A stretch of 64,000 nucleotides of DNA, taken from positions 492,321 to 556,320 of the forward strand of contig JAJYLR010000001.1 of the NCBI GenBank assembly GCA_021787535.1, in the 5' to 3' direction. This document shows, piece by piece, positions 12,226 through 33,096 of the stretch. Every line of letters begins with the position of its first letter. Positions within the stretch are counted from its first letter, which is position 1. A model generated the notes under the pieces. It was not told the origin of the DNA, did not search any database, and was given only the letters and a program-made list of their open reading frames with translations. Source of the stretch: a bacterium. GTDB taxonomy: Bacteria > Patescibacteriota > CPR2 > UBA1875 > JAJYID01. The translations under genes and the position numbers were made by a program.

Positions 12226-12587
12226 CATTGTTTGGTGTTTTACTGAGCCCATTGTCACGAAAAGAGAATCCCGAATTTCAAAAAAAGAACGTGAGTTTGA
12301 TAAGATGCCAAACATGACCTTTACACTTTCTCCTCAGTTCTCGGCGCCTCGCCGCCGCTTTGCGTTTATGCGTTCAGGGGGCGCAGGATGAAAAAAATAA
12401 GTCGAGAAGGAGAGGAGAAAGAAGCAGCGATTTTTCCGCGGAGAATCGCTGCGAGCAGTGGGAATTTTGGCAACATGAAGTCGACCGCCAATCTCACTGC
12501 ACCTCGCAAGGGATAGTTTATTTATCTGCACATGGCGGATAAATTGTTCTTGCGGGGCGAAAGGGGCGCATATGCGCCCCTTTTTTT
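12226..12587 (+). ncRNA. Candidate large structured ncRNA (about 360 nt), family not recognised
   Basis: TTGACA-16-TATAAT (12192-12219); five consecutive stem-loop domains with G-U pairs; terminator 12560-12587. Confidence 0.65.
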
Positions 12588-12624
12588 ATTTACTTGGATT
12601 AGCCAAAACGATAAAATATTAATT

Positions 12625-13245
12625 ATGAAAGTAAAAACGCTTATAGTAGGATTAGGAAATCCGGGTGAAAAATACGAAAAAACCCGACATAATGCAGGAT
12701 TTATGGTGCTGGACGTGCTCTGCAATAATTTTAAATTTGAAAAAAAATTTAATGCGGAAGTTTGCCGGCTCTCCTCCTGTCATTCCCGCGAAGACGGGAA
12801 TCTAGATTCTGAACAAGCCAGAATGACAAATGAAGGAGATATTATTTTGATGAAACCCCAAACCTTCATGAATTTATCAGGCGAGGCAGTCCAATCTTTT
12901 GCCGGTTATTACAAGATTCAACCAGGAAATATTTGGATAATCCACGATGATATAGATATTCCGTTTGGAGAAATTAGAGTGAAAAAAGGCGGTTCTTCGG
13001 CCGGACATAAAGGAGTTCAGTCGATAATTGAAAAAATGGGCACAGAAGATTTTTGGAGGTTTCGAGTTGGCGTTAAAAATAATGATTTAGCAAGAATAGA
13101 AACTGAGGATTTTGTACTGCAAAGATTTAACCCTGATGAAGCAGGAGTTTTGGATAAAATAATAAATTTAGCTGCAGATGAAATAAAACTGTTTTTAAAG
13201 GAGGGAACACTTGAGGCAAAAACTCTAAAATTGAATAAAAAATAA
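12625..13245 (+). CDS. pth: Peptidyl-tRNA hydrolase with in-frame repeat insertion
   Basis: LIVGLGNPG..Y..TRHNAGF, KPQTFMNLSG, HDDIDIPFG, GHKG. Confidence 0.96.
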   Translation: MKVKTLIVGLGNPGEKYEKTRHNAGFMVLDVLCNNFKFEKKFNAEVCRLSSCHSREDGNLDSEQARMTNEGDIILMKPQTFMNLSGEAVQSFAGYYKIQPGNIWIIHDDIDIPFGEIRVKKGGSSAGHKGVQSIIEKMGTEDFWRFRVGVKNNDLARIETEDFVLQRFNPDEAGVLDKIINLAADEIKLFLKEGTLEAKTLKLNKK

Positions 13246-13275
13246 GAAGAGAGCATAAAACTCTCTTCTTATTTT
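13239..13275. terminator. Bidirectional terminator
   Basis: AAAATAAGAAGAGAG-loop-CTCTCTTCTTATTTT. Confidence 0.8.
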
Positions 13276-13480
13276 CAAAAAATCTCCCATTGATCAACAT
13301 CTGTCACGGAGACTTAGCCAAGTCACTGCCCATAGGCTGACTGGTGTGTTGTAGGGAGAAACCTACCAACAAGCAAGCAACTTAAAGGAGGGTGATTTAA
13401 GAAAGCTGAACTTGTTAGTAGGTTTCCGCCCTACAAAATCCCGCACCAAAAGGACTTTGAAATCCTTTCTTAGGTACGAT
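13240..13480 (-). ncRNA. Candidate sRNA with anti-Shine-Dalgarno loop
   Basis: Promoter TTGACA-17-TAATAT with extended TG (13514-13486); long hairpin 13349-13436 with loop UCACCCUCC; G-U pairs favour the - strand. Confidence 0.65.
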
Positions 13481-13549
13481 AGAACATATTAACATATTAA
13501 AGTACTTATGTCAATACTTTTTTAATAAAACTCATGTTTTGTGCTTAAA

Positions 13550-14641
13550 ATGAACGAAAAAAAGCTTAAAAAGAATAGAAAATATCTGCTGGCTCTGGAC
13601 ATCGCCTTGAACACTTTTGGATTTGAAAGATTGAAAAAAATAGAGAAAAGCGGTCTGAATTTTGAGGAAGTTTGGGAAATGCCCGCCGGACAGCTAAAGC
13701 AGAAATTGGGCAAATATAACTTTGTTGAAAAGTTGGCCAGCGAACGGGGGAAAATATACCCGGACACAGAGATTGAGAAACTGGAAAAACAAAAAATTGG
13801 CTTTATTACTATTTATGACGAAGAATATCCCAAAAATTTGAAGGAGATTTTCTCGCCTCCGGTTATTCTTTATTATAAGGGCGACTTAAACGTCTTAAAC
13901 GAAGTGTGTTTGGCAGTGGTGGGTTCGAGAAAATACACGACGTATGGGAAAAATGCTGCAGAAAAACTAGTTTACGGTTTATCTGAAAGCGGATTTACGA
14001 TCGTAAGCGGGATGGCCCTCGGGATAGACACATTTGCTCACACCTCTGCACTAAATGCCGAGGGTAAAACAGTAGCAGTGCTCGGATGCGGGCTTAACCA
14101 GCCATATCCTTCATCAAATACAAATCTTTTCCGGCAAATCATAAACTCCGACGGACTAGCACTTAGTGAATACATGCCGGGGAAACCGCCTCTCCCGCAG
14201 CATTTTCCAGCGAGAAACAGGATTATTTCCGGCCTTTCCAAAGGCATCCTAATAATAGAAGCGGGGATAAGGTCAGGGGCTCTTATAACCGCAAGAGATG
14301 GTCTGGAGCAAAACAAAGATATTTTTACCGTGCCCGGGCCGATATTCGGTGAATCTTCAAGCGGTACGAACCAGCTCTTGAAAATGGGAGCAAACCCGGT
14401 CACACAAGCAGAAGATATTATTGAATATTACGGCTATAAAACTAAGCCAAAGATAATATTAAAGCCGTCAAACAATACCGAAAAGGCTATTTTTGAAGCA
14501 CTGAATAAAGAAAAAATGCACGTTGATGACATTATTAAACACGCAAAACTTGAAAGCCAGCTGATTATTTCGACCTTGACACTTATGGAAATAAAAGGTA
14601 AGGTAAAAAACTTAGGAGGCATGGTTTATTGTTTAAATTAA
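13550..14641 (+). CDS. dprA: DNA-processing protein DprA
   Basis: AVVGSR, IVSGMALGIDT.AH, FPARNRIISGLS, EAGIRSGALITA. Confidence 0.95.
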   Translation: MNEKKLKKNRKYLLALDIALNTFGFERLKKIEKSGLNFEEVWEMPAGQLKQKLGKYNFVEKLASERGKIYPDTEIEKLEKQKIGFITIYDEEYPKNLKEIFSPPVILYYKGDLNVLNEVCLAVVGSRKYTTYGKNAAEKLVYGLSESGFTIVSGMALGIDTFAHTSALNAEGKTVAVLGCGLNQPYPSSNTNLFRQIINSDGLALSEYMPGKPPLPQHFPARNRIISGLSKGILIIEAGIRSGALITARDGLEQNKDIFTVPGPIFGESSSGTNQLLKMGANPVTQAEDIIEYYGYKTKPKIILKPSNNTEKAIFEALNKEKMHVDDIIKHAKLESQLIISTLTLMEIKGKVKNLGGMVYCLN

Positions 14642-23554: not shown

Positions 23555-24373
23555 TTACTTATAAAAAACCCTGTCTTTAATGCGCATATCCATATATGTA
23601 AGATGGTGGCCTTTAATCTCCGGGCTGTTGATAGCAGCTGCTAGATTTGCAAGTTCATGCGCCGGATCCCTTGTAGTATCAAAGGTAATATAAAAACCAA
23701 GCGTCGTTTGAACAACCGCCTCATTAAAATTATCATTAATTTCTATTTTCGTAATTTTAGCCCCCGTATCTTTAGTAAAGTTTTGGTTTAAATATTGAAT
23801 AAACCTAATAAACTCAGGAGTTACCATGCTCTTCCCTATTTCGACAGGCAGATTTTTTTTATCTTCGATTGTTACAAGATCGTTTCTCTTACCTGGTGCC
23901 ACTCCTACCACCTTGCCTTTTTCATCCACTAAATAATATTTCCCGCCGCTTAACCACTCAAGTTCCAAAACATATTCATCTAGATTAACGCTAATTCTGT
24001 CGGGATAATGTTTAGTAATTTTTAATGTTTTTAAAGCATACTTTTTCTTTAAATTTCTTTCCGCGCCATCCGTATCGAAAAAGAGAATATTGCCCTTAAA
24101 AAATTCTTTTTCCATACTAGCATTAATATCGGAGATAATTTGATCAGAAGAGAGTTCCCTTGTCCCTTTAACATCCACTGTCTTAACTCTAAAAACCCCG
24201 GAAAAAAGGATGAGATACAAAATGCCAGCCATTGATAAAAAGACAAGCGGGTAATATAAGCGAGTCATATCAAAACCGTCGGGTTCTTCTATTTCTGTAC
24301 GCTTATATACAAGTTTATTGCGGCTCTGCAATCTTTTTATTTTACCGGCCCTTCTCCCCTGCTGCCCTCTCAT
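23555..24373 (-). CDS. ftsQ: FtsQ/DivIB-type POTRA protein
   Basis: Single TM, POTRA-like region, C-terminal YMDMR; dcw position. Confidence 0.8.
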   Translation of the reverse strand: MRGQQGRRAGKIKRLQSRNKLVYKRTEIEEPDGFDMTRLYYPLVFLSMAGILYLILFSGVFRVKTVDVKGTRELSSDQIISDINASMEKEFFKGNILFFDTDGAERNLKKKYALKTLKITKHYPDRISVNLDEYVLELEWLSGGKYYLVDEKGKVVGVAPGKRNDLVTIEDKKNLPVEIGKSMVTPEFIRFIQYLNQNFTKDTGAKITKIEINDNFNEAVVQTTLGFYITFDTTRDPAHELANLAAAINSPEIKGHHLTYMDMRIKDRVFYK

Positions 24374-25526
24374 CGCGAACCCTTTCTCTTTGTTCTCTCT
24401 TATAATAATTGATTAAATGTTCGGCAATGATTTTTGCCGCATCTTCTTTGTAAAAACTATGAATTTTTTCCGATAAATATCCCAGTTCATCCGGATCTTC
24501 TAGAAGCTTGTCTGCTTGTCTAAAAAGTTTTTCCGGCGTTAAATGACTCTGAAGCATCACATAAGCAGCGCCTTCTCTAGAATATGCCTTGGCGTTTGCT
24601 AGCTGATGATCGCCTGCCGATGACTCAAGAGGAATAATGATGGCCGGTTTTTTCATGGCAGCTATTTCAGTCAAGGCATTATTCCCAGCCCTTGATATAA
24701 TAAGGTCAGAGATACTGTAAGCGTCCTTGAGTTCATTAGTCAGAAAACTAAAAAGCCGGTATCTTTCAAGATGATTATATGTTCTGCTCTTATATTCCAG
24801 CCAATCGTAATCCAAATCTCCTGAGAGATGGATGACCTGATATTTTTCCAAATAATTTTCTAATTTCTGGGAAAAAACCTCATTAATCTTTCTCGCGCCC
24901 TGGCTGCCGCCTAAAATAAGAATGGTTTTTAGTTTTCTATCAAAATCAAATGTTTTATAGGCCTCTTTCTTATCACCCAAAAGCAAACCGCGTCTCAGAG
25001 GATTACCTGAATAGATCAGCCGTTCCCTATTCATCTCAGGGAAATTTTCTAATGGATATGAAACAAAAATCCTTCGAGCTTTCTTAGCCAGAATCCTATT
25101 AGAAAGACCTGAGATAATATCAGATTCATGGATAAAATATGGATACCTTTTTATACGGCAAGCCAGACCGATAGGAAGACTGACATATCCGCCTTTCAAA
25201 AAAACCATGTCAGGATCTTCTGCTTTTAAAATTTTAAAAGCATCAAAAATCCCTCGGATGAAATTTATAAAGTCGAAAAGGTTTTTAAGAAAAGTAGTAG
25301 GATTTAATATATTCAAAATCATACTTCGATAGTATCTTCTGAATTTCCCGCTATGGATAGATAGAGTCTTGATATCTGCTTGAGGAATCAGCTTCTCTTC
25401 AATACCCCCCTTGGAGCCGACATACGTTAAATTGATATCCTGTTTTCTCGCTCTCAGCTCTTCAGCAACTGCTAAAAGCGGTGCGACGTGCCCTCCTGAT
25501 CCTCCTCCTGCTATAATAACTTTCAT
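24342..25526 (-). CDS. murG: Undecaprenyl-PP-MurNAc-pentapeptide GlcNAc transferase
   Basis: GGGSGGHV.P, KGGYVS.P, GGSQGA, ISRAG, HQLANA. Confidence 0.95.
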   Translation of the reverse strand: MKVIIAGGGSGGHVAPLLAVAEELRARKQDINLTYVGSKGGIEEKLIPQADIKTLSIHSGKFRRYYRSMILNILNPTTFLKNLFDFINFIRGIFDAFKILKAEDPDMVFLKGGYVSLPIGLACRIKRYPYFIHESDIISGLSNRILAKKARRIFVSYPLENFPEMNRERLIYSGNPLRRGLLLGDKKEAYKTFDFDRKLKTILILGGSQGARKINEVFSQKLENYLEKYQVIHLSGDLDYDWLEYKSRTYNHLERYRLFSFLTNELKDAYSISDLIISRAGNNALTEIAAMKKPAIIIPLESSAGDHQLANAKAYSREGAAYVMLQSHLTPEKLFRQADKLLEDPDELGYLSEKIHSFYKEDAAKIIAEHLINYYKREQRERVRDERAAGEKGR

Positions 25527-26653
25527 TTTCTGTCCTCTCCTAAAGTTTTTCTGGAAATATTTAATAAGATACCGCAAGACGCGATAACCATTGCCACAGA
25601 AGTGCCACCAAAACTTATAAACGGTAATGTCACCCCAGTTAAAGGCAGAAGCGATAAAGCAGCGGCAATATTTAAAATAGCTTGAAAAACAATCCAGCTT
25701 GTTATCCCTACGGCAAGCAAACGCGTATACATATCGCGCGCGTTTCCGGCAATTCTAAAGCCATAATAACCAAAGAGCGCAAAAAGGACGGTAATAACAG
25801 CTGTACCGATAAGACCTCCTTCCTCACCGATAATTGCAAAGATCGAGTCTGTAGCCGCTTCGGGCAAATATCTGTATTTTTGCAGTGATTGGCCGAAACC
25901 TTTACCTATTAATCCTCCTGATCCTATTGCAATCAACGCTTGTTTAGTCTGATAACCGGCCGCATGATTGGCATAAGCCCCAGGATTTAAAAATACTAAG
26001 AATCTCTGCATTCTATAAGGAGAAACTTTAATAAGCAAAAGAAGACCTGCCGCCCCGGCCGCCAAAAGCGAGAGAAGATGACTTATTTTTGCCCCGGAAA
26101 CAAAGTACATCACACCAGCAATCATGATAATCACAATCAGAGTACCCATATCCGGCTGCGCCATGATTAAAATGCCCATTAACCCCAGAAGAGCCAGAAA
26201 AGGCAAAAGTCCGCTCGTCAGATCTCTCACTTCGCGCCCCTTTTTCTCAAAGAGAGCGGCCAGATAAACAATAACTGAAAATTTTAGAAAATCAGACGGC
26301 TGAATCTGAATAGGACCGATGTCAATCCATCTGCGCGCGCCTCCATGTTCCACGCCTACATGTGGAATAAAAACAGCTATAAGAACGAGAATGCTGGCAA
26401 CGAGCATCGGAAATGCCAGTTTTTTCCAATATTCCACGTCAATTTTATAGAAAATGCCCATTAAAACAAAGCCGGTGATAATGCTAAAAACTTGCTTTAC
26501 AAACATATAACGTGAATCGCCGTACTGCTGGAAACTGATTACGCTTGAAGCTGATGAAAGAAAAATTATACCGGCGACAACAAGGAACATGATAACGATA
26601 AAGAGGCGGAAATCCGGAGAAGTTTTTCTAAGGCGGTGTCTAAAAGTACTCAT
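25523..26653 (-). CDS. ftsW: SEDS protein FtsW
   Basis: GARRWI, QPSD, QPDMGT, GKGFGQSLQK, TGVTLPFISFGG. Confidence 0.93.
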   Translation of the reverse strand: MSTFRHRLRKTSPDFRLFIVIMFLVVAGIIFLSSASSVISFQQYGDSRYMFVKQVFSIITGFVLMGIFYKIDVEYWKKLAFPMLVASILVLIAVFIPHVGVEHGGARRWIDIGPIQIQPSDFLKFSVIVYLAALFEKKGREVRDLTSGLLPFLALLGLMGILIMAQPDMGTLIVIIMIAGVMYFVSGAKISHLLSLLAAGAAGLLLLIKVSPYRMQRFLVFLNPGAYANHAAGYQTKQALIAIGSGGLIGKGFGQSLQKYRYLPEAATDSIFAIIGEEGGLIGTAVITVLFALFGYYGFRIAGNARDMYTRLLAVGITSWIVFQAILNIAAALSLLPLTGVTLPFISFGGTSVAMVIASCGILLNISRKTLGEDRK

Positions 26654-26654
26654 T

Positions 26655-27689
26655 CTAGCTGCCTCCGGATATAAATCTGAGTATCACCCCCAAAACTGCG
26701 GCGAAAGCGCCGATAATCCAAAACCTCATTGTTACCTTTGTCTCAGGCCATCCTTTAGCTTCAAAATGATGATGAATAGGAGCAACAATAAAGATCTTCT
26801 TCTTTTTCAGGGCCTTCCAAGAAATAATTTGCAGTAGAGAAGAACCGGCTTCAACGACAAATATTAACCCAATGATAGGCAGCACTAGGGCAGAATTCGT
26901 CAGCATAGCAATAACTCCAAGCGCAGCTCCTAAAGAAATCGCGCCTGTGTCTCCCATGAAAAATCGTGCCGGATAAATATTAAACCATGTGTAGGCCAAA
27001 ATCGCGCCAACCAAAGTTCCGCAGAAAGCCGCAATACCATAGTTGCCCTGAAAAAATGCAATGACAAGGTATGCAAAGAAAGATGTGGCAAGCAGCCCGC
27101 CTGATAGCCCATCCAAACCATCTGTAATATTAACTGCATTGGCGGTAGCAACAAAAACCAAAATAAAAAAGGGCACATATAGCCAGCCAACTTCTAGGTT
27201 GCCGTTAAAAGGAATGTTAATAGCATTGTGGCCAAGTTTTACATAAAACCAATACGCTCCCAAAAAGGCGATAAGAAGCAGCCAGCTCATTTTTACTTTT
27301 GCTTTCATGCCCGCTACTCCGCCTTCAGATCTCACATTGATAATGTCATCAAAAATTCCAAGAATACCTACAGAAACAAGTGCGAAAAGCGGAAGCCATG
27401 TTTGAGATCTGTCTAAATTAAAAAATAAAGTCAAAATAAGCACCGTACCCCAGATGAGCACACCGGCCATAGTCGGAATGTTTCGTTTGTGTTTCTCGCC
27501 ATGTAGTTTTTGAAAGATTTTAGCTTTTTCTCCATCCACTGTCTTAGTTCTGATTTTCTTCCACCACTCATGTTTATAGGCAAAATGGGTGTAAACCGGT
27601 GTCAAAACCATAGCTAATACAAATGCTCCCGCGCTTAAGAGCCCTATCTTTAATATTTGAGATATCATTTCAGGATTTGTTATATTCAT
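26655..27689 (-). CDS. mraY: Phospho-N-acetylmuramoyl-pentapeptide transferase
   Basis: PTMAG, NITDGLDGL, FMGDTG, APIHHHFE. Confidence 0.96.
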   Translation of the reverse strand: MNITNPEMISQILKIGLLSAGAFVLAMVLTPVYTHFAYKHEWWKKIRTKTVDGEKAKIFQKLHGEKHKRNIPTMAGVLIWGTVLILTLFFNLDRSQTWLPLFALVSVGILGIFDDIINVRSEGGVAGMKAKVKMSWLLLIAFLGAYWFYVKLGHNAINIPFNGNLEVGWLYVPFFILVFVATANAVNITDGLDGLSGGLLATSFFAYLVIAFFQGNYGIAAFCGTLVGAILAYTWFNIYPARFFMGDTGAISLGAALGVIAMLTNSALVLPIIGLIFVVEAGSSLLQIISWKALKKKKIFIVAPIHHHFEAKGWPETKVTMRFWIIGAFAAVLGVILRFISGGS

Positions 27690-27756
27690 AAATAAAACCT
27701 TTAGTTAATGGGGACTTCAGTTAATGAGTTCATTAGGTTTTGCCTAGTTCCTTGAG

Positions 27757-29007
27757 CTATCTCCTCTCCCATTCTTTTCCTTGCCTGGGCAACCTTCGAA
27801 AGGCGCTTTCAGGACTTTTCATGACTATTTTAACTGCCTTTTCCATTCTTGACGCATTCTGGGAACCTTTAAAAAGCACTATATCTCCGCTTTGCAAAAT
27901 CTCCTTCACATACTTTCCCGCAATAGCTGAGCCATTAAAACTATAAACATTTTCTTCTGCTAAACCCGCGTCAATTGCAGACTTAGCTAAGTATTTTTTA
28001 CTTATATCTCCTACCGTTACTAGAATATCACATTTTCCAACTAAATATGAGCCGATTTTCTGATGGGCCTCTTTTGCTTGTCCGCCTAATTCGCCCATAG
28101 CGCCTAGAACAGCGATCTTTCTTTTGCCAGGAAATTTTTCTAAAACATCTAAAGCGTTTTTCATGGAAGCCGGACTTGCGTTATAAGAGTCGTCTAAAAT
28201 AACCGAGCCGCTTGCCCCTTCAATAATATTTATTCTACCTCTCACCGGCAGATATTTTCCCAATGCGGAAACTATAAGATTTGAGTCAATTTTCTCCGAG
28301 ACGCCAACAGCGATTGCTGCGGCAAACGAGTACAAAAGATGTTCCCCGACAGCATTTGATTTGATTTCCAAGACCTTATCATAAACTTTGAAACGGTTTA
28401 AAGAACTGTGACTGTCAAAACTTTGCCCTATAATTTTTATCTCATTTGATTTTCTTCCGAAGGTTATCTTTCGCACTCCTTGCGGAACGGCCATCTTAGC
28501 GGTAAATTCATTATCTGTGTTTATAATTGCAGCGCCGCCTTCTGCGAGCGCCGATAATATTTTTGCCTTCTCTTTTGCAACATTATTAACCGTGCCAAAC
28601 TTTTCCAGATGTACGCCGGAAACATTAGTGATAATGGCAATATCCGGTTTAACTAAGTTAGTCAAATATTTAATGTCGCCCGGCCTATCTGCACCCATTT
28701 CTAAGACTGCATAATCATAATTGCGCTTTTTAAGAGCTTCAAGCGGTAAAAGCAGCATTAAAATAAACCAGCCAAGTTTTGACCGGGGAATTTTTCTCTC
28801 CAAAAGTATAAGCGGCAAACCAAACTCGGTGTTGTAACCTTCCTCTACGAAAGAAAGAACCTTGTATTTTTCCTGTAATACTAAAGAAACGGCCTTCTTA
28901 GTTGAGGTCTTTCCTACACTGCCGGTAATCGCTATGATGCGATAATGATTTCTCGCAATCGCTGCCTTAGTAGCTGCGCCTAATATAGTTTTTGCAATTT
29001 TTTTCAT
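27757..29007 (-). CDS. murF: Mur ligase MurF lacking the usual N-terminal domain
   Basis: ITGSVGKTSTK, LEMGAD, DDSYNASP.SM, LGAMGELG, KGSQ. Confidence 0.9.
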   Translation of the reverse strand: MKKIAKTILGAATKAAIARNHYRIIAITGSVGKTSTKKAVSLVLQEKYKVLSFVEEGYNTEFGLPLILLERKIPRSKLGWFILMLLLPLEALKKRNYDYAVLEMGADRPGDIKYLTNLVKPDIAIITNVSGVHLEKFGTVNNVAKEKAKILSALAEGGAAIINTDNEFTAKMAVPQGVRKITFGRKSNEIKIIGQSFDSHSSLNRFKVYDKVLEIKSNAVGEHLLYSFAAAIAVGVSEKIDSNLIVSALGKYLPVRGRINIIEGASGSVILDDSYNASPASMKNALDVLEKFPGKRKIAVLGAMGELGGQAKEAHQKIGSYLVGKCDILVTVGDISKKYLAKSAIDAGLAEENVYSFNGSAIAGKYVKEILQSGDIVLFKGSQNASRMEKAVKIVMKSPESAFRRLPRQGKEWERR

Positions 29008-29010
29008 TTT

Positions 29011-30738
29011 CTACTTGCTCTCTGTCGGCGGAACCTGATAATAGTTGAGAAGCTTTTGCAGCATTTCCCCAACTGTTGGCGCAGCCGAAAGCTCTGCCCA
29101 ATCTACATTTTTGGGTTCGTCAATCTTTGCCATCACTACAAATCTCGGATTTTCAGCGGGTGCAAAGCCGATAAACGAACCAATTTCTCTATTAGCATAA
29201 TAACCTCCTTGAGGATCAGGTACTTGGGCCGTACCGGTCTTGCCGGCCACTTTGTATCCGGGTACTTTAGCTAAGTGACCCTCACCATGATCCACTGTAT
29301 CCACAAGCATTTGAGTGAGTTTTGCCGCTGCCTCTTCGGAAATAACTTGCTTGCCGGGTTTTTCATCACCGCCTCCAACATCTTGCCCATTGGCAACCTT
29401 GCCTTCTATAAGATAGGGCTCTATCATCTTACCATCATTTGCAATAGCTGAATATGCAGTAATCATTTGGAGAGGCGTCACAGCAATACTTTGTCCGAAA
29501 CTCATAGTTGCATAGGTATGATCATTTGAATCAGCCGGCTTGTTCAAGATACCGCCCGCTTCAGTACCCTGTGGCGCTTCGATACCCGTAGGCAAACCAA
29601 AGCCAAATTTTTTTAGATAATTATAAAATAAATCCTTGCCAAGCAACCTTTGGACATAAGTGGCGCCAGTATTCAAGGAATATTCCAAAACAAATGTCAT
29701 ATTAACATTCCCATATGCCTTTAAAAGGGCATTTTTGATAGTATATCCATCTAAAGTAATACTTCCAGTATCGGTAAAAGGAGTGTCTGGTTCTATTTTT
29801 CCTGTATCCAATCCCGCCGCCATGGTAATCGCTTTAAAGATTGATCCCGGCTCATAGACATTGCTAATGGCCGAGTTTTTAAACAGAGAATAATCTTTAA
29901 CATCATTATAGTTGTTTGGATCAAAAGAGGGATTATTTGCCATAGCCAAAATAGCGCCGTTTTTAGGATCCATGACAATAATTGATCCGGACTTCCCTCC
30001 ATACTTTTTAATCGCACTCGCAAGCGTTTCTTCGGCCATAGCTTGAACATCGCGATTAATTGTAAGGACAATATCTTGGCCATCTTTTGCCGGCACCGAG
30101 ACATCTCTGCCGGTAAGAATCTTATTTCCCAGAGAATCAGACTCTGCCTTATAAAGACCGGGCGTACCTTTCAGTTCATCATTAAAATATTGCTCAATAC
30201 CTCCAACACCGTTGTCATCTCCATTTACATATCCGAGAACCTGGCTGGCCAAGGTGTTCTCCGGGTAAACTCTCCATGGCTCTGGTTCCAAACCTATTGA
30301 TGGATCATTTAGATCTTTTATGCTTTGAGTTTCCTGATCACTGATTTTTCTTTTTATGGGAATATATCTTTTTGACTGAGAAGTGTTAAAAAGATTTAAG
30401 ATATCATCTTTTTTCATTTTTAAAATTTCAGCTAGATTTTCAGCTGTTTTATCTTGGTCTTTACTGTTTGCGAGATCCACAAAAACCTTATTCAGTGTTA
30501 TATTAGTTGCCAAAGGATATAGATTACCATCCATATCTTTAACATAGATATTGCCTCTTTTGGGCTGAATCTCGTACTCTGACCAATGCTGGCTATTAGC
30601 AGCTTGAGCATATGTCTGATGCTCTAGGACCTGTAGTTGGAATAGCCGAAATAAAATTGCCGCGCTCGCTAAAATAATGAAAAAGAACAAGTATTTTGTT
30701 CTTTTTCTTTGTAATTGTGTATCGGTATGACTAATCAT
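29011..30738 (-). CDS. ftsI: Class B penicillin-binding protein
   Basis: PKRGNI, EPGSIFK, SLN, AGKTGTAQ. Confidence 0.92.
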   Translation of the reverse strand: MISHTDTQLQRKRTKYLFFFIILASAAILFRLFQLQVLEHQTYAQAANSQHWSEYEIQPKRGNIYVKDMDGNLYPLATNITLNKVFVDLANSKDQDKTAENLAEILKMKKDDILNLFNTSQSKRYIPIKRKISDQETQSIKDLNDPSIGLEPEPWRVYPENTLASQVLGYVNGDDNGVGGIEQYFNDELKGTPGLYKAESDSLGNKILTGRDVSVPAKDGQDIVLTINRDVQAMAEETLASAIKKYGGKSGSIIVMDPKNGAILAMANNPSFDPNNYNDVKDYSLFKNSAISNVYEPGSIFKAITMAAGLDTGKIEPDTPFTDTGSITLDGYTIKNALLKAYGNVNMTFVLEYSLNTGATYVQRLLGKDLFYNYLKKFGFGLPTGIEAPQGTEAGGILNKPADSNDHTYATMSFGQSIAVTPLQMITAYSAIANDGKMIEPYLIEGKVANGQDVGGGDEKPGKQVISEEAAAKLTQMLVDTVDHGEGHLAKVPGYKVAGKTGTAQVPDPQGGYYANREIGSFIGFAPAENPRFVVMAKIDEPKNVDWAELSAAPTVGEMLQKLLNYYQVPPTESK

Positions 30739-30771: not shown

Positions 30772-31110
30772 CTAGCGATTGACGGCAACACCCGTCGCAG
30801 AATTTACATAATCTACTTGCTTTGTCGGCACCATATCCGTTTTTGGCACATCTTTTTGAATTGACTCGACAGACTGTAATCTTGCTGCTTCAACTTGCAA
30901 TATCTGGTTTTCATCGGTCAACTCCTTCTTTTTCTGTTCCAGCTTCGCAATTTGGTCATTTGTCATAGTCATTTGGTTTCTCTGGGAAAGGAGAAAAATA
31001 AAAAGAGGAAGAATAACAAATACTGCCGTAAAGACAATAGTCATTTTACCCATCTTGAATTGCCTTTTATAACTTTTATTAAATTTTTTCTTTTTCTTTC
31101 TGTCTCTCAT
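30772..31110 (-). CDS. ftsL: FtsL-like cell division protein
   Basis: Basic N-terminus, one TM, coiled coil; lies between rsmH and ftsI. Confidence 0.7.
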   Translation of the reverse strand: MRDRKKKKKFNKSYKRQFKMGKMTIVFTAVFVILPLFIFLLSQRNQMTMTNDQIAKLEQKKKELTDENQILQVEAARLQSVESIQKDVPKTDMVPTKQVDYVNSATGVAVNR

Positions 31111-31236
31111 TTTAATCTCCTTTGTTTTTTGTTTTTAATCACCCTCCTTTAAGGTGTTTGTTTGTAAAATCGTTGTAATTGATGTATCGCTTCGCTTAAG
31201 GAAATGGCCTGTTTTCTTCCTTATAAACTTATTAAC

Positions 31237-32181
31237 TTACAACTTTATCACTACTCTCAGTTTTGCGCTTCGAGCACGCGGATTTTCTAGTATTTCCTCT
31301 GAACTTGCAACAATCGGTTTTCTTGTTACAATTTTTAATCTTTTTTTGTGGTTGCATTTGCAAGTCGGAAACTCCGGCGGACAAATACATCCTTTTGCCT
31401 CTTGCTGAAAAAAGTCTTTCACTATACGATCTTCGAGTGAATGAAATGTAATCACTGCCAATCTACCTTTTGTAACCAGCAAATCCACCGCCTGAGGCAA
31501 AAACTTCTCCAAATGCCCTAACTCGTCATTAACCTCTATCCGAAGTGCCTGAAATACTTTTGTAGCGGGATGGATTTTACCGATTTTAATGCTCTTTGCA
31601 TGGTAGATATCTCTAACTAGTTCAGCAAGCTGTACAGTTTCTTTGAAAGGATTTTTCTTTCGTCTCTGAACAATTTTTGCAGCTATGGTTTTCGATAATC
31701 TCTCCTCGCCATATCGGCTCAATATATCGGCTAATTGCTGTTCGCTATATCTCGCCAAAATATCTGCTGCTGTTACTTCCCTGCTCTGATCCATTCTCAT
31801 GTCAAGCGGTCCGGTATTTTTAAATGAAAATCCTCTCTCCGGTTCATCAAGTTGAATAGAAGAAACACCGATATCGGCCAAAATCCCATTTGCCTTCATA
31901 AATCCTTTTTCCTGAGCAATTTTTCCAACCTCGGAAAAATTTGCCTTTTCTAAGGTTAGATTTGAATACCTAGCTTGTAAATTGGCCCCCGACCAATTTA
32001 AAGCCCCAATATCTTGATCTAATCCCAAGAGTTTCCCATAAGGTCCGATTTTCTTTAAGATAGCTTCTGTATGACCGCCAAACCCCACCGTTGCGTCAAT
32101 GTAGACTTGCCCGGGTTTCGGGTCAAGCAAGCGGATAACTTCTTGTAAAAGTACGCTCTTATGTATTTTTTTCTTTTCCAT
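31237..32181 (-). CDS. rsmH: 16S rRNA m4C1402 methyltransferase
   Basis: HKSVLL, DATVGFGGH, DIGVSS.QLD, FQALRIEVN, NPRARSAKLR. Confidence 0.97.
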   Translation of the reverse strand: MEKKKIHKSVLLQEVIRLLDPKPGQVYIDATVGFGGHTEAILKKIGPYGKLLGLDQDIGALNWSGANLQARYSNLTLEKANFSEVGKIAQEKGFMKANGILADIGVSSIQLDEPERGFSFKNTGPLDMRMDQSREVTAADILARYSEQQLADILSRYGEERLSKTIAAKIVQRRKKNPFKETVQLAELVRDIYHAKSIKIGKIHPATKVFQALRIEVNDELGHLEKFLPQAVDLLVTKGRLAVITFHSLEDRIVKDFFQQEAKGCICPPEFPTCKCNHKKRLKIVTRKPIVASSEEILENPRARSAKLRVVIKL

Positions 32182-32410: not shown

Positions 32411-32842
32411 TTACATTCCAAAGGAATCAAGCTGTTCTGCAATCTGGCCGGAATCTTTTTCGATCCTCGACTGATACTCTTCCCATTCTTTTACATCCCA
32501 GATTTCAATTCTTGAATAAACTCCCACAACTACGGCATTAGTTTTGAGCCCGGCAAATTCTCTCAAGTTTTGCGGAATGTTTATTCTTCCCTGTCTGTCA
32601 AGATTACAATCATTTGCGCCTGCTAGAACCATTCGTGAGAATGCTCTGGCATTTCCTTTGGTATAAGGCATGTTGGCGATCTCAGATGCTATTTTCTCCC
32701 ATTCATCGCGCGTATAAATCACAAGCGCGTTTTCCAGACCTTTAGTGATCACTACTCCACTAGCAAGTTTCCCTCTAAACTTTGCCGGAAGAGCCAGTCT
32801 TCCTTTCTCATCTATTGAATGTTTGTATTCTCCGATAAACAT
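32411..32842 (-). CDS. mraZ: Transcriptional regulator MraZ
   Basis: MFIGEY..SIDEKGRL; LDRQGRI; RIEIW. Confidence 0.96.
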   Translation of the reverse strand: MFIGEYKHSIDEKGRLALPAKFRGKLASGVVITKGLENALVIYTRDEWEKIASEIANMPYTKGNARAFSRMVLAGANDCNLDRQGRINIPQNLREFAGLKTNAVVVGVYSRIEIWDVKEWEEYQSRIEKDSGQIAEQLDSFGM

Positions 32843-32850
32843 CTTTGTTC

Positions 32851-32895
32851 CCCACTTTTCACCACTTTCTCCCATTTTATACCACTTATGACCAC
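32851..32895 (-). promoter_or_regulatory. MraZ-binding direct repeats
   Basis: Five repeats at 10-bp period on -: GTGGT, GTGGT, ATGGG, GTGGT, GTGGG. Confidence 0.8.
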
Positions 32896-33096
32896 TGTGT
32901 AAAGACTTTTTTGCTTATGCCCCCACTTTCTGTATCCTTTTAAAAGCGGTTTCAATGCACTGACTTTTTTTGCTTATACAGAGGTAAATATTAGACTTTA
33001 TTAAGCAAATCAAAAAAGAACAGCTTTTAAAGCTGTTCTTTTGTATACTAGTTTTCCACAGGTATTATTGCATAGAATATTGAATTTTAAATAAAT

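Follow-up and report, generated by a model that had tools for sequence, protein, structure and literature searches.

A predicted structured non-coding RNA between pth and dprA in Patescibacteria and its co-varying complementary site in the division operon

What is encoded between pth and dprA in a patescibacterial genome, and does it bear on the division operon located 18 kb away? The window, namely, the whole 64-kb stretch of DNA that was analysed, belongs to a genome of 945 kb (97% complete), in line with the 0.5–1.4 Mb of most genomes in our phylum sample. It is designated G000 hereafter, where G stands for genome, f for family and L for locus. In this genome, uS5 immediately adjoins uL15 with no space for uL30 between them, and uL30 is described as absent from all CPR bacteria (PMC9297842, excerpt), which points to Patescibacteria. 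At the locus itself, pth (12532–13245, plus strand, PF01195), coding for peptidyl-tRNA hydrolase and syntenic in relatives, and dprA (13541–14641, plus strand, PF02481), replaced in some relatives by an mfd-like gene or topA, flank an interval for which the predicted product is a single-copy, structured, non-coding RNA, convergent to the former gene and divergent from the latter.

The predicted RNA comprises about 240 nt (13238–13480, minus strand), its 5' end being deduced from promoter spacing and its 3' end corresponding to the terminator. The initial annotation had proposed a minus-strand promoter, a 5' hairpin, a long hairpin and a terminator common to pth, and all four elements are found at this locus. 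The sigma70-type promoter (13486–13514, minus strand; TTGACA-17-TAATAT with an extended -10 TG) was recognised from the sequence and its homologs, the strict form being present on the RNA strand in 37 out of 40 homologs and on the opposite strand in 0 out of 40, with an extended -10 in 36 out of 40, which argues against a plus-strand origin. In family f8 (L099, L100, L101), two tandem sigma70 promoters precede the RNA. Starting from the 5' end, all on the minus strand, the molecule consists of a hairpin (13442–13478; -15.2 kcal/mol), the length and sequence of which vary among relatives, the 5' partner of a central strand (13429–13438), and a conserved rod (13360–13425) made of a 15-bp lower stem, an internal loop and a 6-bp upper stem, which carries the seed loop UCACCCUCC (13387–13395), predicted to be unpaired with a probability of 0.99. 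The rod is followed, in this order, by the central strand (13348–13359), two small hairpins (13344–13318 and 13313–13303), a G-rich 3' strand and the terminator; the two hairpins, together with the 3' partners at 13298–13295 and 13288–13283, belong to a 3' domain (13283–13344). The intrinsic terminator (13238–13276, minus strand) is symmetric, overlaps the stop codon of the convergent pth, with which it is shared, and has a similar hairpin as counterpart in relatives. The folding of the whole region is far more stable than expected from its composition (z = -8.8; 0 out of 200 shuffles equally stable). No small ORF is conserved on either strand, and no conserved ORF with a Shine–Dalgarno (SD) sequence was found among 18 homologs. 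Three metatranscriptomes contributed nothing at this locus, and a further sequencing run, not necessarily of RNA, provided a 151-nt contig spanning 13309–13426; neither result was counted as expression evidence.

With regard to the long hairpin annotated at 13436–13349, it is present (-44.2 kcal/mol), but its bottom corresponds to only one of two conserved folds, as 13359–13348 also closes a junction. In fold A, the central strand pairs with the 5' flank and lengthens the rod, and this arrangement is favoured by 13.8 kcal/mol in this genome; in fold B, which is the consensus fold, it pairs with the 3' strand and closes a three-way junction within the 3' domain. Among the 38 homologs compared (the remaining 2 of the 40 carry no recognisable central strand), the 5' pairing beats shuffled flanks (p ≤ 0.05) in 19 and the 3' pairing in 26. 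The junction nucleotides are conserved, and the 3' domain is highly variable or missing in distant homologs.

BLAST searches revealed a near-full-length RNA in seven of the eight other members of the family; across much of the order, its core was recovered. Wherever the contig extends far enough, the RNA adjoins pth, with dprA or topA. The alignment of 24 sequences, which are related and from which the consensus structure was itself derived, displays 94% paired cells and double-sided changes in 25 out of 39 pairs (10 out of 15 in the lower stem of the rod); none of 500 shuffles was as good, and slid controls drop to 30–49% paired cells. The most invariant part of the RNA is its unpaired C-rich loop (CCCUCCU), in which ACCCUCCU is unchanged in all 24 aligned members of the order. 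A first model, R1, detects one strong copy in 30 out of 32 genomes of the class, a count that includes its 24 training sequences and G028, found with an E-value of only 1e-4. The two genomes missed are G004, whose assembly is also devoid of pth, and G011. In the phylum samples, R1 matches 12 and a second model, R2, 23 out of 151 genomes. Fifteen of the R2 matches fall outside the class, and 11 of these exhibit, in a more diverged form, the rod and a CCCUCC loop, mostly beside pth, dprA or an mfd-like gene, 3 of the 11 being R2 training sequences. In G152, the 3' domain is kept and the C-rich loop is lost. The misses of R2 mean little, as the automatically derived structure underlying this model was poor (21 pairs). 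A fold-based scan of 29 pth loci yielded four more rod-and-loop look-alikes (G043, G050, G052 and G057), the homology of which is uncertain because R2 with default filters missed all of them and, when unfiltered, scored only G050. Three matches in f26 (G049, G179 and G184), located beside a dnaX-like gene and lacking the loop, are doubtful and were excluded. The f26 loci L160, L162 and L164 harbour a different long-rod RNA with its own promoter, divergent from the dnaX-like gene and conserved in three genomes; it has no C-rich apical loop, and the two loci scanned gave no match in Rfam.

To which class might such an RNA belong? At the gathering cut-off, Rfam recognises only tRNAs in the window, and only terminator-like noise is added at E-values up to 10; 16 homolog loci gave a single tRNA and no other match. 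The 6S RNA model (RF00013) has no match at E ≤ 1 in the genome, and the consensus fold, an apical C-rich loop with a separate 3' domain, does not correspond to 6S RNA. The SRP RNA model (RF00169) has no match in the genome either, and neither 6S nor small SRP RNA was found anywhere in this 97% complete genome. The RNase P RNA and tmRNA genes are located elsewhere, on C7 and on C2 outside the window, respectively. The loop is not a mimic of the 16S anti-SD sequence, as it differs from the 16S tail CACCUCCU by one additional C and by flanks that vary. A riboswitch or cis-acting attenuator was rejected since the downstream gene is the convergent pth and the terminator forms independently of both folds, and a type I antitoxin because the neighbours are pth and dprA and no small ORF is conserved. 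The locus does share features with trans-acting sRNAs with a C-rich loop, namely, its own promoter and terminator, its non-coding nature and a conserved unpaired seed. A co-varying G-rich site elsewhere in the genome, as expected for such an sRNA, is found in 23 out of 39 genomes, but not in the other 16, nor in any of the 4 look-alikes. Rfam 15 does not contain this family, and the RNA appears to have been previously uncatalogued.

The G-rich site lies in an operon of the minus strand with the gene order mraZ-rsmH-ftsL-ftsI-murF-mraY-ftsW-murG. The first gene, mraZ (32411–32875, PF02381), is followed by rsmH (mraW; 31237–32181, PF01795), ftsL (30772–31110) and the downstream division and cell-wall genes ftsI, murF-like, mraY, ftsW and murG (24342–30738). 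The ftsL gene is named from its position between rsmH and ftsI and from sub-threshold family matches, PF04977 being slightly below the cut-off (E 1.5e-6) and NF053549 also below it. Upstream of mraZ, positions 32875–32960 of the window contain GTGG repeats spaced by about 10 nt, which we take to be probably the MraZ operator.

The complementary site (31137–31165, minus strand) is located in the rsmH-ftsL spacer and is the best non-self match of the RNA in the genome. The initial annotation was accurate in reporting that 13397–13381 is the exact 17-nt complement of 31153–31137, that 9 of the next 12 positions match as well, and that the site is an SD-like element 26 nt upstream of the ftsL ATG. 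As for the anti-SD loop of that annotation, it has one extra C compared with the anti-SD sequence and is not a copy of it. The site forms a small hairpin (31140–31156; 6-bp stem, purine loop AAAGG, -6.2 kcal/mol), and the following stretch (31113–31136) comprises an A/C-rich single-stranded tract, then the true ftsL SD (from 31123). The 17-mer occurs only twice in the genome, as does its 13-nt core, and it is thus not a frequent SD context. Taken in one genome, a 17-nt match is weak evidence, because the core is SD-like, GGAGGG occurs 247 times, and exact repeats of at least 17 nt account for 1251 events, many from palindromic repeat families. Within this genome, 7 out of 1204 ORF leaders reach a score of 30, including that of ftsL and the opposite strand of the RNA gene itself, and the ftsL site has the top ungapped score (50, the next being 40) and a duplex energy of -34.4 versus -33.5 for the next one. 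Whole-molecule co-folding formed no loop duplex, a method that cannot place intermolecular pairs inside a closed loop, and an accessibility calculation was therefore used. Among the 70 strongest of 263 seed-bearing leaders, it ranked the ftsL site best, with a 17-bp duplex and -18.4 versus -17.5 kcal/mol, a margin of less than 1 kcal/mol over the next leader. The next-best predicted partners (C2:418785 and C2 near 409679) include a glycosyltransferase-like membrane gene and a DnaB-like helicase gene, both named by eye.

The significance of the match comes from its conservation and co-variation, beyond the single genome. In each of the 39 genomes possessing both the RNA and the operon head, the 40 nt around its own loop were scored against its mraZ leader and the following spacers. 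This set excludes G004 and G011, in which the RNA was not found, G006, in which the operon was not found, G020, whose contig ends cut both, G152, which lacks the loop, and also f26 and the four look-alikes. A site scoring at least 30, a threshold chosen after seeing the data, is present in 23 of the 39 genomes (including G096, in which it is not a GGAGGG site), compared with 0 out of 39 in both the antisense and the coding controls. Furthermore, the RNA of a given family fits its site better than do the RNAs of other families (permutation p ~1e-5, 15 families), and this holds without the three discovery families f1–f3 (3e-5) and for 7 families of other classes (0.009), p-values that are too small because the families are related. 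The corresponding controls gave p = 0.26 (antisense) and 0.10 (coding) for the 15 families, and 0.59 and 0.024, respectively, without f1–f3, the latter value indicating that base composition contributes a little. The compensatory changes, plainly visible in the alignments and each matching the RNA of the same genome, are GGAGGGUGCCUAA in G010, GGAGGGUGGUU in f8, GGAGGGCUAAAAGGU in G091, AAGCCUUAAAGGAGGGC in G148 and GGAGGGG in G080 and G059. Of 9 mismatches, 3 are G-U wobbles, which amounts to no clear preference for this type. The 16S tail (GAUCACCUCCUUU) is identical in the 11 genomes where it was found, out of 20 searched. As it remains constant, the flank changes do not track the ribosome; they follow the RNA of the same genome, and the site is therefore not a generic SD match. 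In f3, an advantage of the own RNA over those of other families is often lacking. In G004, where the RNA is missing from the assembly, the operon retains a long match to the invariant f1 arm. The compensatory changes that the initial annotation suggested looking for between loop and leader do occur across families, and they support its proposal of trans-acting control of the division genes, except that the mraZ operon head, and not ftsL specifically, is the target.

The position of the site differs among lineages. Families f1, f2 and part of f3 carry it in the rsmH-ftsL spacer. In f8 and G059, whose operon does not contain rsmH, it lies between mraZ and ftsL. G091 and G148, as well as G070 with a weaker form, have it directly after the mraZ stop codon, and G046 and G080 have it upstream of mraZ. 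It overlaps the SD of rsmH in G012 and that of ftsL in G059, and abuts an SD in G010. Most sites are away from a start codon, often directly after a stop codon, and most of the 23 sites fold into a small hairpin with a purine loop, which suggests loop–loop initiation; in G148, directly after mraZ, a 12-bp hairpin is followed by a pyrimidine run. In 16 out of 39 genomes, the RNA is kept without a site scoring at least 30 (f4, f6, f7, f22, f30, part of f3 and f54, and G008; G070 scores 28), and a blind prediction of the site in the four distant look-alikes succeeded in none of them. For the site-less lineages, loop-complement searches (5 + 5 + 5 + 8 genomes, with part of the matches inspected) provided no convincing shared alternative target, the last search scoring G011 and G152 with the RNA arm of a relative; the lineage-limited candidates are the f4 site within rsmH described below, the SD of a response regulator in two f3 genomes and an enolase-like leader in two f4 genomes. 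Judged by these distributions, the RNA is older and more widespread than the operon site.

Additional features were noticed around the operon and in other leaders. In f4 (L252, L258 and L217), AGGAGGGUGA or a one-wobble variant is present at the same rsmH coding position in three of the four RNA-bearing genomes, and is followed in two of them by an A/C tract, as at the f1 site. The rsmH-ftsL spacers of L043 (G005), L055 (G025) and L040 (G008) contain short palindromic or low-complexity repeats inserted into the target site or replacing it, and repeat families of this kind are abundant in G000. Downstream of mraZ, the spacers L143–L147 carry a conserved C-rich motif of the CACCUCC/CCACC type, with CUGCUAG in several lineages, which could pair with the G-rich mraZ leader or correspond to MraZ boxes on the other strand. 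Outside the window, G000:C2:260520–260615 (L313) is a second conserved leader element, located about 100–180 nt upstream of a long gene whose beginning resembles a signal peptide. It is shared by G000 and five f3 genomes (L265, L266, L267, L268 and L278), lies near rRNA genes in G000 and G014, and looks cis-structured owing to GGAGGGUGAUCGG and an upstream complement, recognised by eye; it may represent a separate RNA motif or a second target.

How could the RNA act on the operon? In the reading that we prefer, with a probability of roughly 0.55, it would be an Hfq-independent, trans-encoded, loop–loop antisense sRNA that turns down the division and cell-wall operon post-transcriptionally. Neither Hfq nor Rho was found in the 97% complete genome, which encodes RNase III, RNase Y and RNase J and gave no motif match for RNase E. 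As the conserved signals suggest, the sRNA would be transcribed from its own sigma70 promoter to the terminator shared with pth, and folding and co-variation show a stable rod that keeps the CCCUCCU loop open. The extra C with respect to the 16S tail would confer a preference for GGAGGG sites over ordinary GGAGGUG ribosome-binding sites. The loop would then kiss the purine loop of the small hairpin that lies close to the head of the mraZ-rsmH-ftsL mRNA, and both upper stems would subsequently unzip to give a duplex of about 17 bp, a kinetic scheme that we infer from the two structures. At sites overlapping or abutting a start site, the duplex would block translation. When the site lies 25–220 nt upstream, as here, the duplex would remove a protective hairpin and an SD-like element and/or invite RNase III, and the ftsL-ftsI part would then presumably decay via RNase J and RNase Y, both enzymes being present. 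With regard to the sign, binding must hinder initiation in the lineages whose site covers or touches an SD, three only (G012, G059 and G010), which makes repression the simplest common sign. Other GGAGGG targets of the RNA are probable, and the operon site seems to have been gained, moved and lost several times. In this way, the sRNA would probably act as a switch on the timing of cell division.

The same pairing might instead raise the expression of the downstream division genes, an outcome that we consider unlikely. It could operate by melting a terminator-like hairpin after mraZ, by shielding a processed ftsL 5' end from RNase J, or by masking a decoy SD that traps 30S subunits. Such routes would suit the distance of most sites from a start codon and their frequent location directly after a stop codon, the 12-bp hairpin and pyrimidine run of G148, and a genome that encodes RNase J and in which no Rho was found; in addition, the mRNAs of bacteria devoid of RNase E can be stabilised by a start-less SD (PMC3997798, excerpt). 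However, binding would cover the SD in G012 and G059, and the hairpin of the present genome is weak (-6.2) and precedes an A/C tract instead of U's.

It is improbable, in our view, that the RNA fulfils primarily a general function, as a stand-in for 6S or SRP RNA or as a protein or ligand switch acting through the junction, the pairing with the operon being secondary and lineage-specific. As expected of such an RNA, it is single-copy and deeply conserved, with a strong sigma70 promoter and a fixed synteny; neither 6S nor small SRP RNA was found in the genome, the conserved junction nucleotides and the two folds would fit a switch, and the loop is lost in G152. Yet no similarity to the 6S and SRP families appears even at E-values up to 10, the unpaired C-rich loop is the most invariant part of the molecule, and it is the 3' domain that is highly variable or absent in distant homologs.

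A further possibility, to which we give little credence, is that the operon transcript is a sponge that traps and destroys the sRNA, the true targets being other GGAGGG leaders, so that transcription of the division genes would set the sRNA level. The site would then be free to change position in the operon, often far from any start, as is observed, the RNA could persist in lineages without the site, and other leaders are close in energy. On the other hand, the loop-complement searches described above, within the part of the matches inspected, revealed no conserved alternative target, and some lineages have their site right on an SD. Lastly, the absence of any RNA–RNA pairing, whether the two elements were copies of a protein-binding motif (in DNA or RNA), as the initial annotation had alternatively suggested, or a chance SD-like match, is very improbable, since, despite an SD-like core, the abundance of GGAGGG and of 17-nt repeats, and the hairpin nature of both elements that explains part of the match, the two copies are on opposite transcribed senses, their flanks change together by lineage while the 16S tail does not, and the repeats in the mraZ leader, GTGG units spaced by 10 nt, do not resemble this single site.

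The antisense mechanism that we favour has parallels in known systems. In the plasmid pairs CopA/CopT and RNAI/RNAII, hairpin–hairpin kissing is followed by strand exchange, but these RNAs are cis-encoded and perfectly complementary, whereas the partners described here are 18 kb apart and matched by co-evolution. RsaE/RoxS, RepG, FasX and the cuckoo RNAs use unpaired C-rich seeds to read G-rich or SD-like mRNA regions, some of them with a stabilising effect. They differ from the present sRNA by their short seeds and their occurrence in other phyla, and have no Rfam match here; to our knowledge, none has a co-varying hairpin target in the dcw operon. Loop–loop pairing is also a property of RNAIII from Staphylococcus aureus. 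The latter pairs extensively without Hfq and can trigger RNase III (PMC3997798, excerpt). RNAIII is, however, larger, encodes a protein and regulates virulence through multiple targets, and neither its sequence nor its context is related to the present RNA. In Actinobacteria, the 6C/B11 sRNA binds mRNAs directly through C-rich loops without Hfq or ProQ (PMC6486639, excerpt). As far as that excerpt goes, 6C resembles the present sRNA by its C-rich loop, its independence from chaperones and its conservation across a wide bacterial group, but has more than one C-rich loop and many targets, whereas the RNA studied here exposes one loop on a long rod and, unlike 6C, has a 17–25-nt match in which the stem arms take part, a 3' junction and a hairpin target that co-varies. 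With regard to the target, the closest case is the StsR/UpsM pair of Rhodobacter sphaeroides, where a trans-acting sRNA binds by base pairing to the head of the dcw (mraZ) transcript, alters its processing and limits division (PMC8266604, excerpt). In that account, StsR addresses the same kind of target but is induced by RpoH, acts on the mraZ 5' UTR and involves RNase E; the present sRNA has a sigma70-type promoter, a mostly intercistronic site and a genome with RNase III, Y and J. By Rfam and by context, it is a member of neither the 6C nor the StsR family. Start-less SD sequences bound by 30S subunits, such as the STAB-SD of cryIIIA, are comparable to the target, which is SD-like without a start codon of its own in a genome with RNase J, and the excerpt describing them mentions no sRNA partner (PMC3997798). 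In enterobacteria, stable RNAs are cut from mraZ, ftsL and ftsI, which is a different phenomenon (PMC6156199, excerpt).

In the literature searched, which left subscription papers mostly uncovered, we found neither this RNA nor any CPR sRNA directed at the division operon described. A 2026 preprint on prokaryotic non-coding clusters (10.64898/2026.10.21.760802) does not refer to mraZ, ftsL or pth in the main text consulted, and its supplements may list the family. As far as sequence allows it to be judged, the RNA represents a new family, with a known mechanism in a new form, and the comparative support for its target is unusually good.

Patescibacteria have very small genomes and depend on a host. 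A conserved sRNA with a sequence-defined target in the division operon makes the timing of their division directly testable with two short RNAs and no culturing. The RNA and its site offer a clear natural case of co-evolution between an sRNA and its target across deep lineages, with a site that shifts between spacers, and may explain how a loop one base off the anti-SD sequence picks a few mRNAs among hundreds. More speculatively, and with only a modest chance of being right, we can propose a division checkpoint operating across much of Patescibacteria, in which the 3' junction would sense a protein or metabolite and switch the folds while the loop kisses the co-evolving operon hairpin; the signal might, just as tentatively, be host contact or a nutrient, for example. 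Should this be true, these host-dependent bacteria would provide their first example of a cell cycle controlled by an RNA, together with an antisense pair, encoded in trans, in which the target site has changed place repeatedly inside a single operon.
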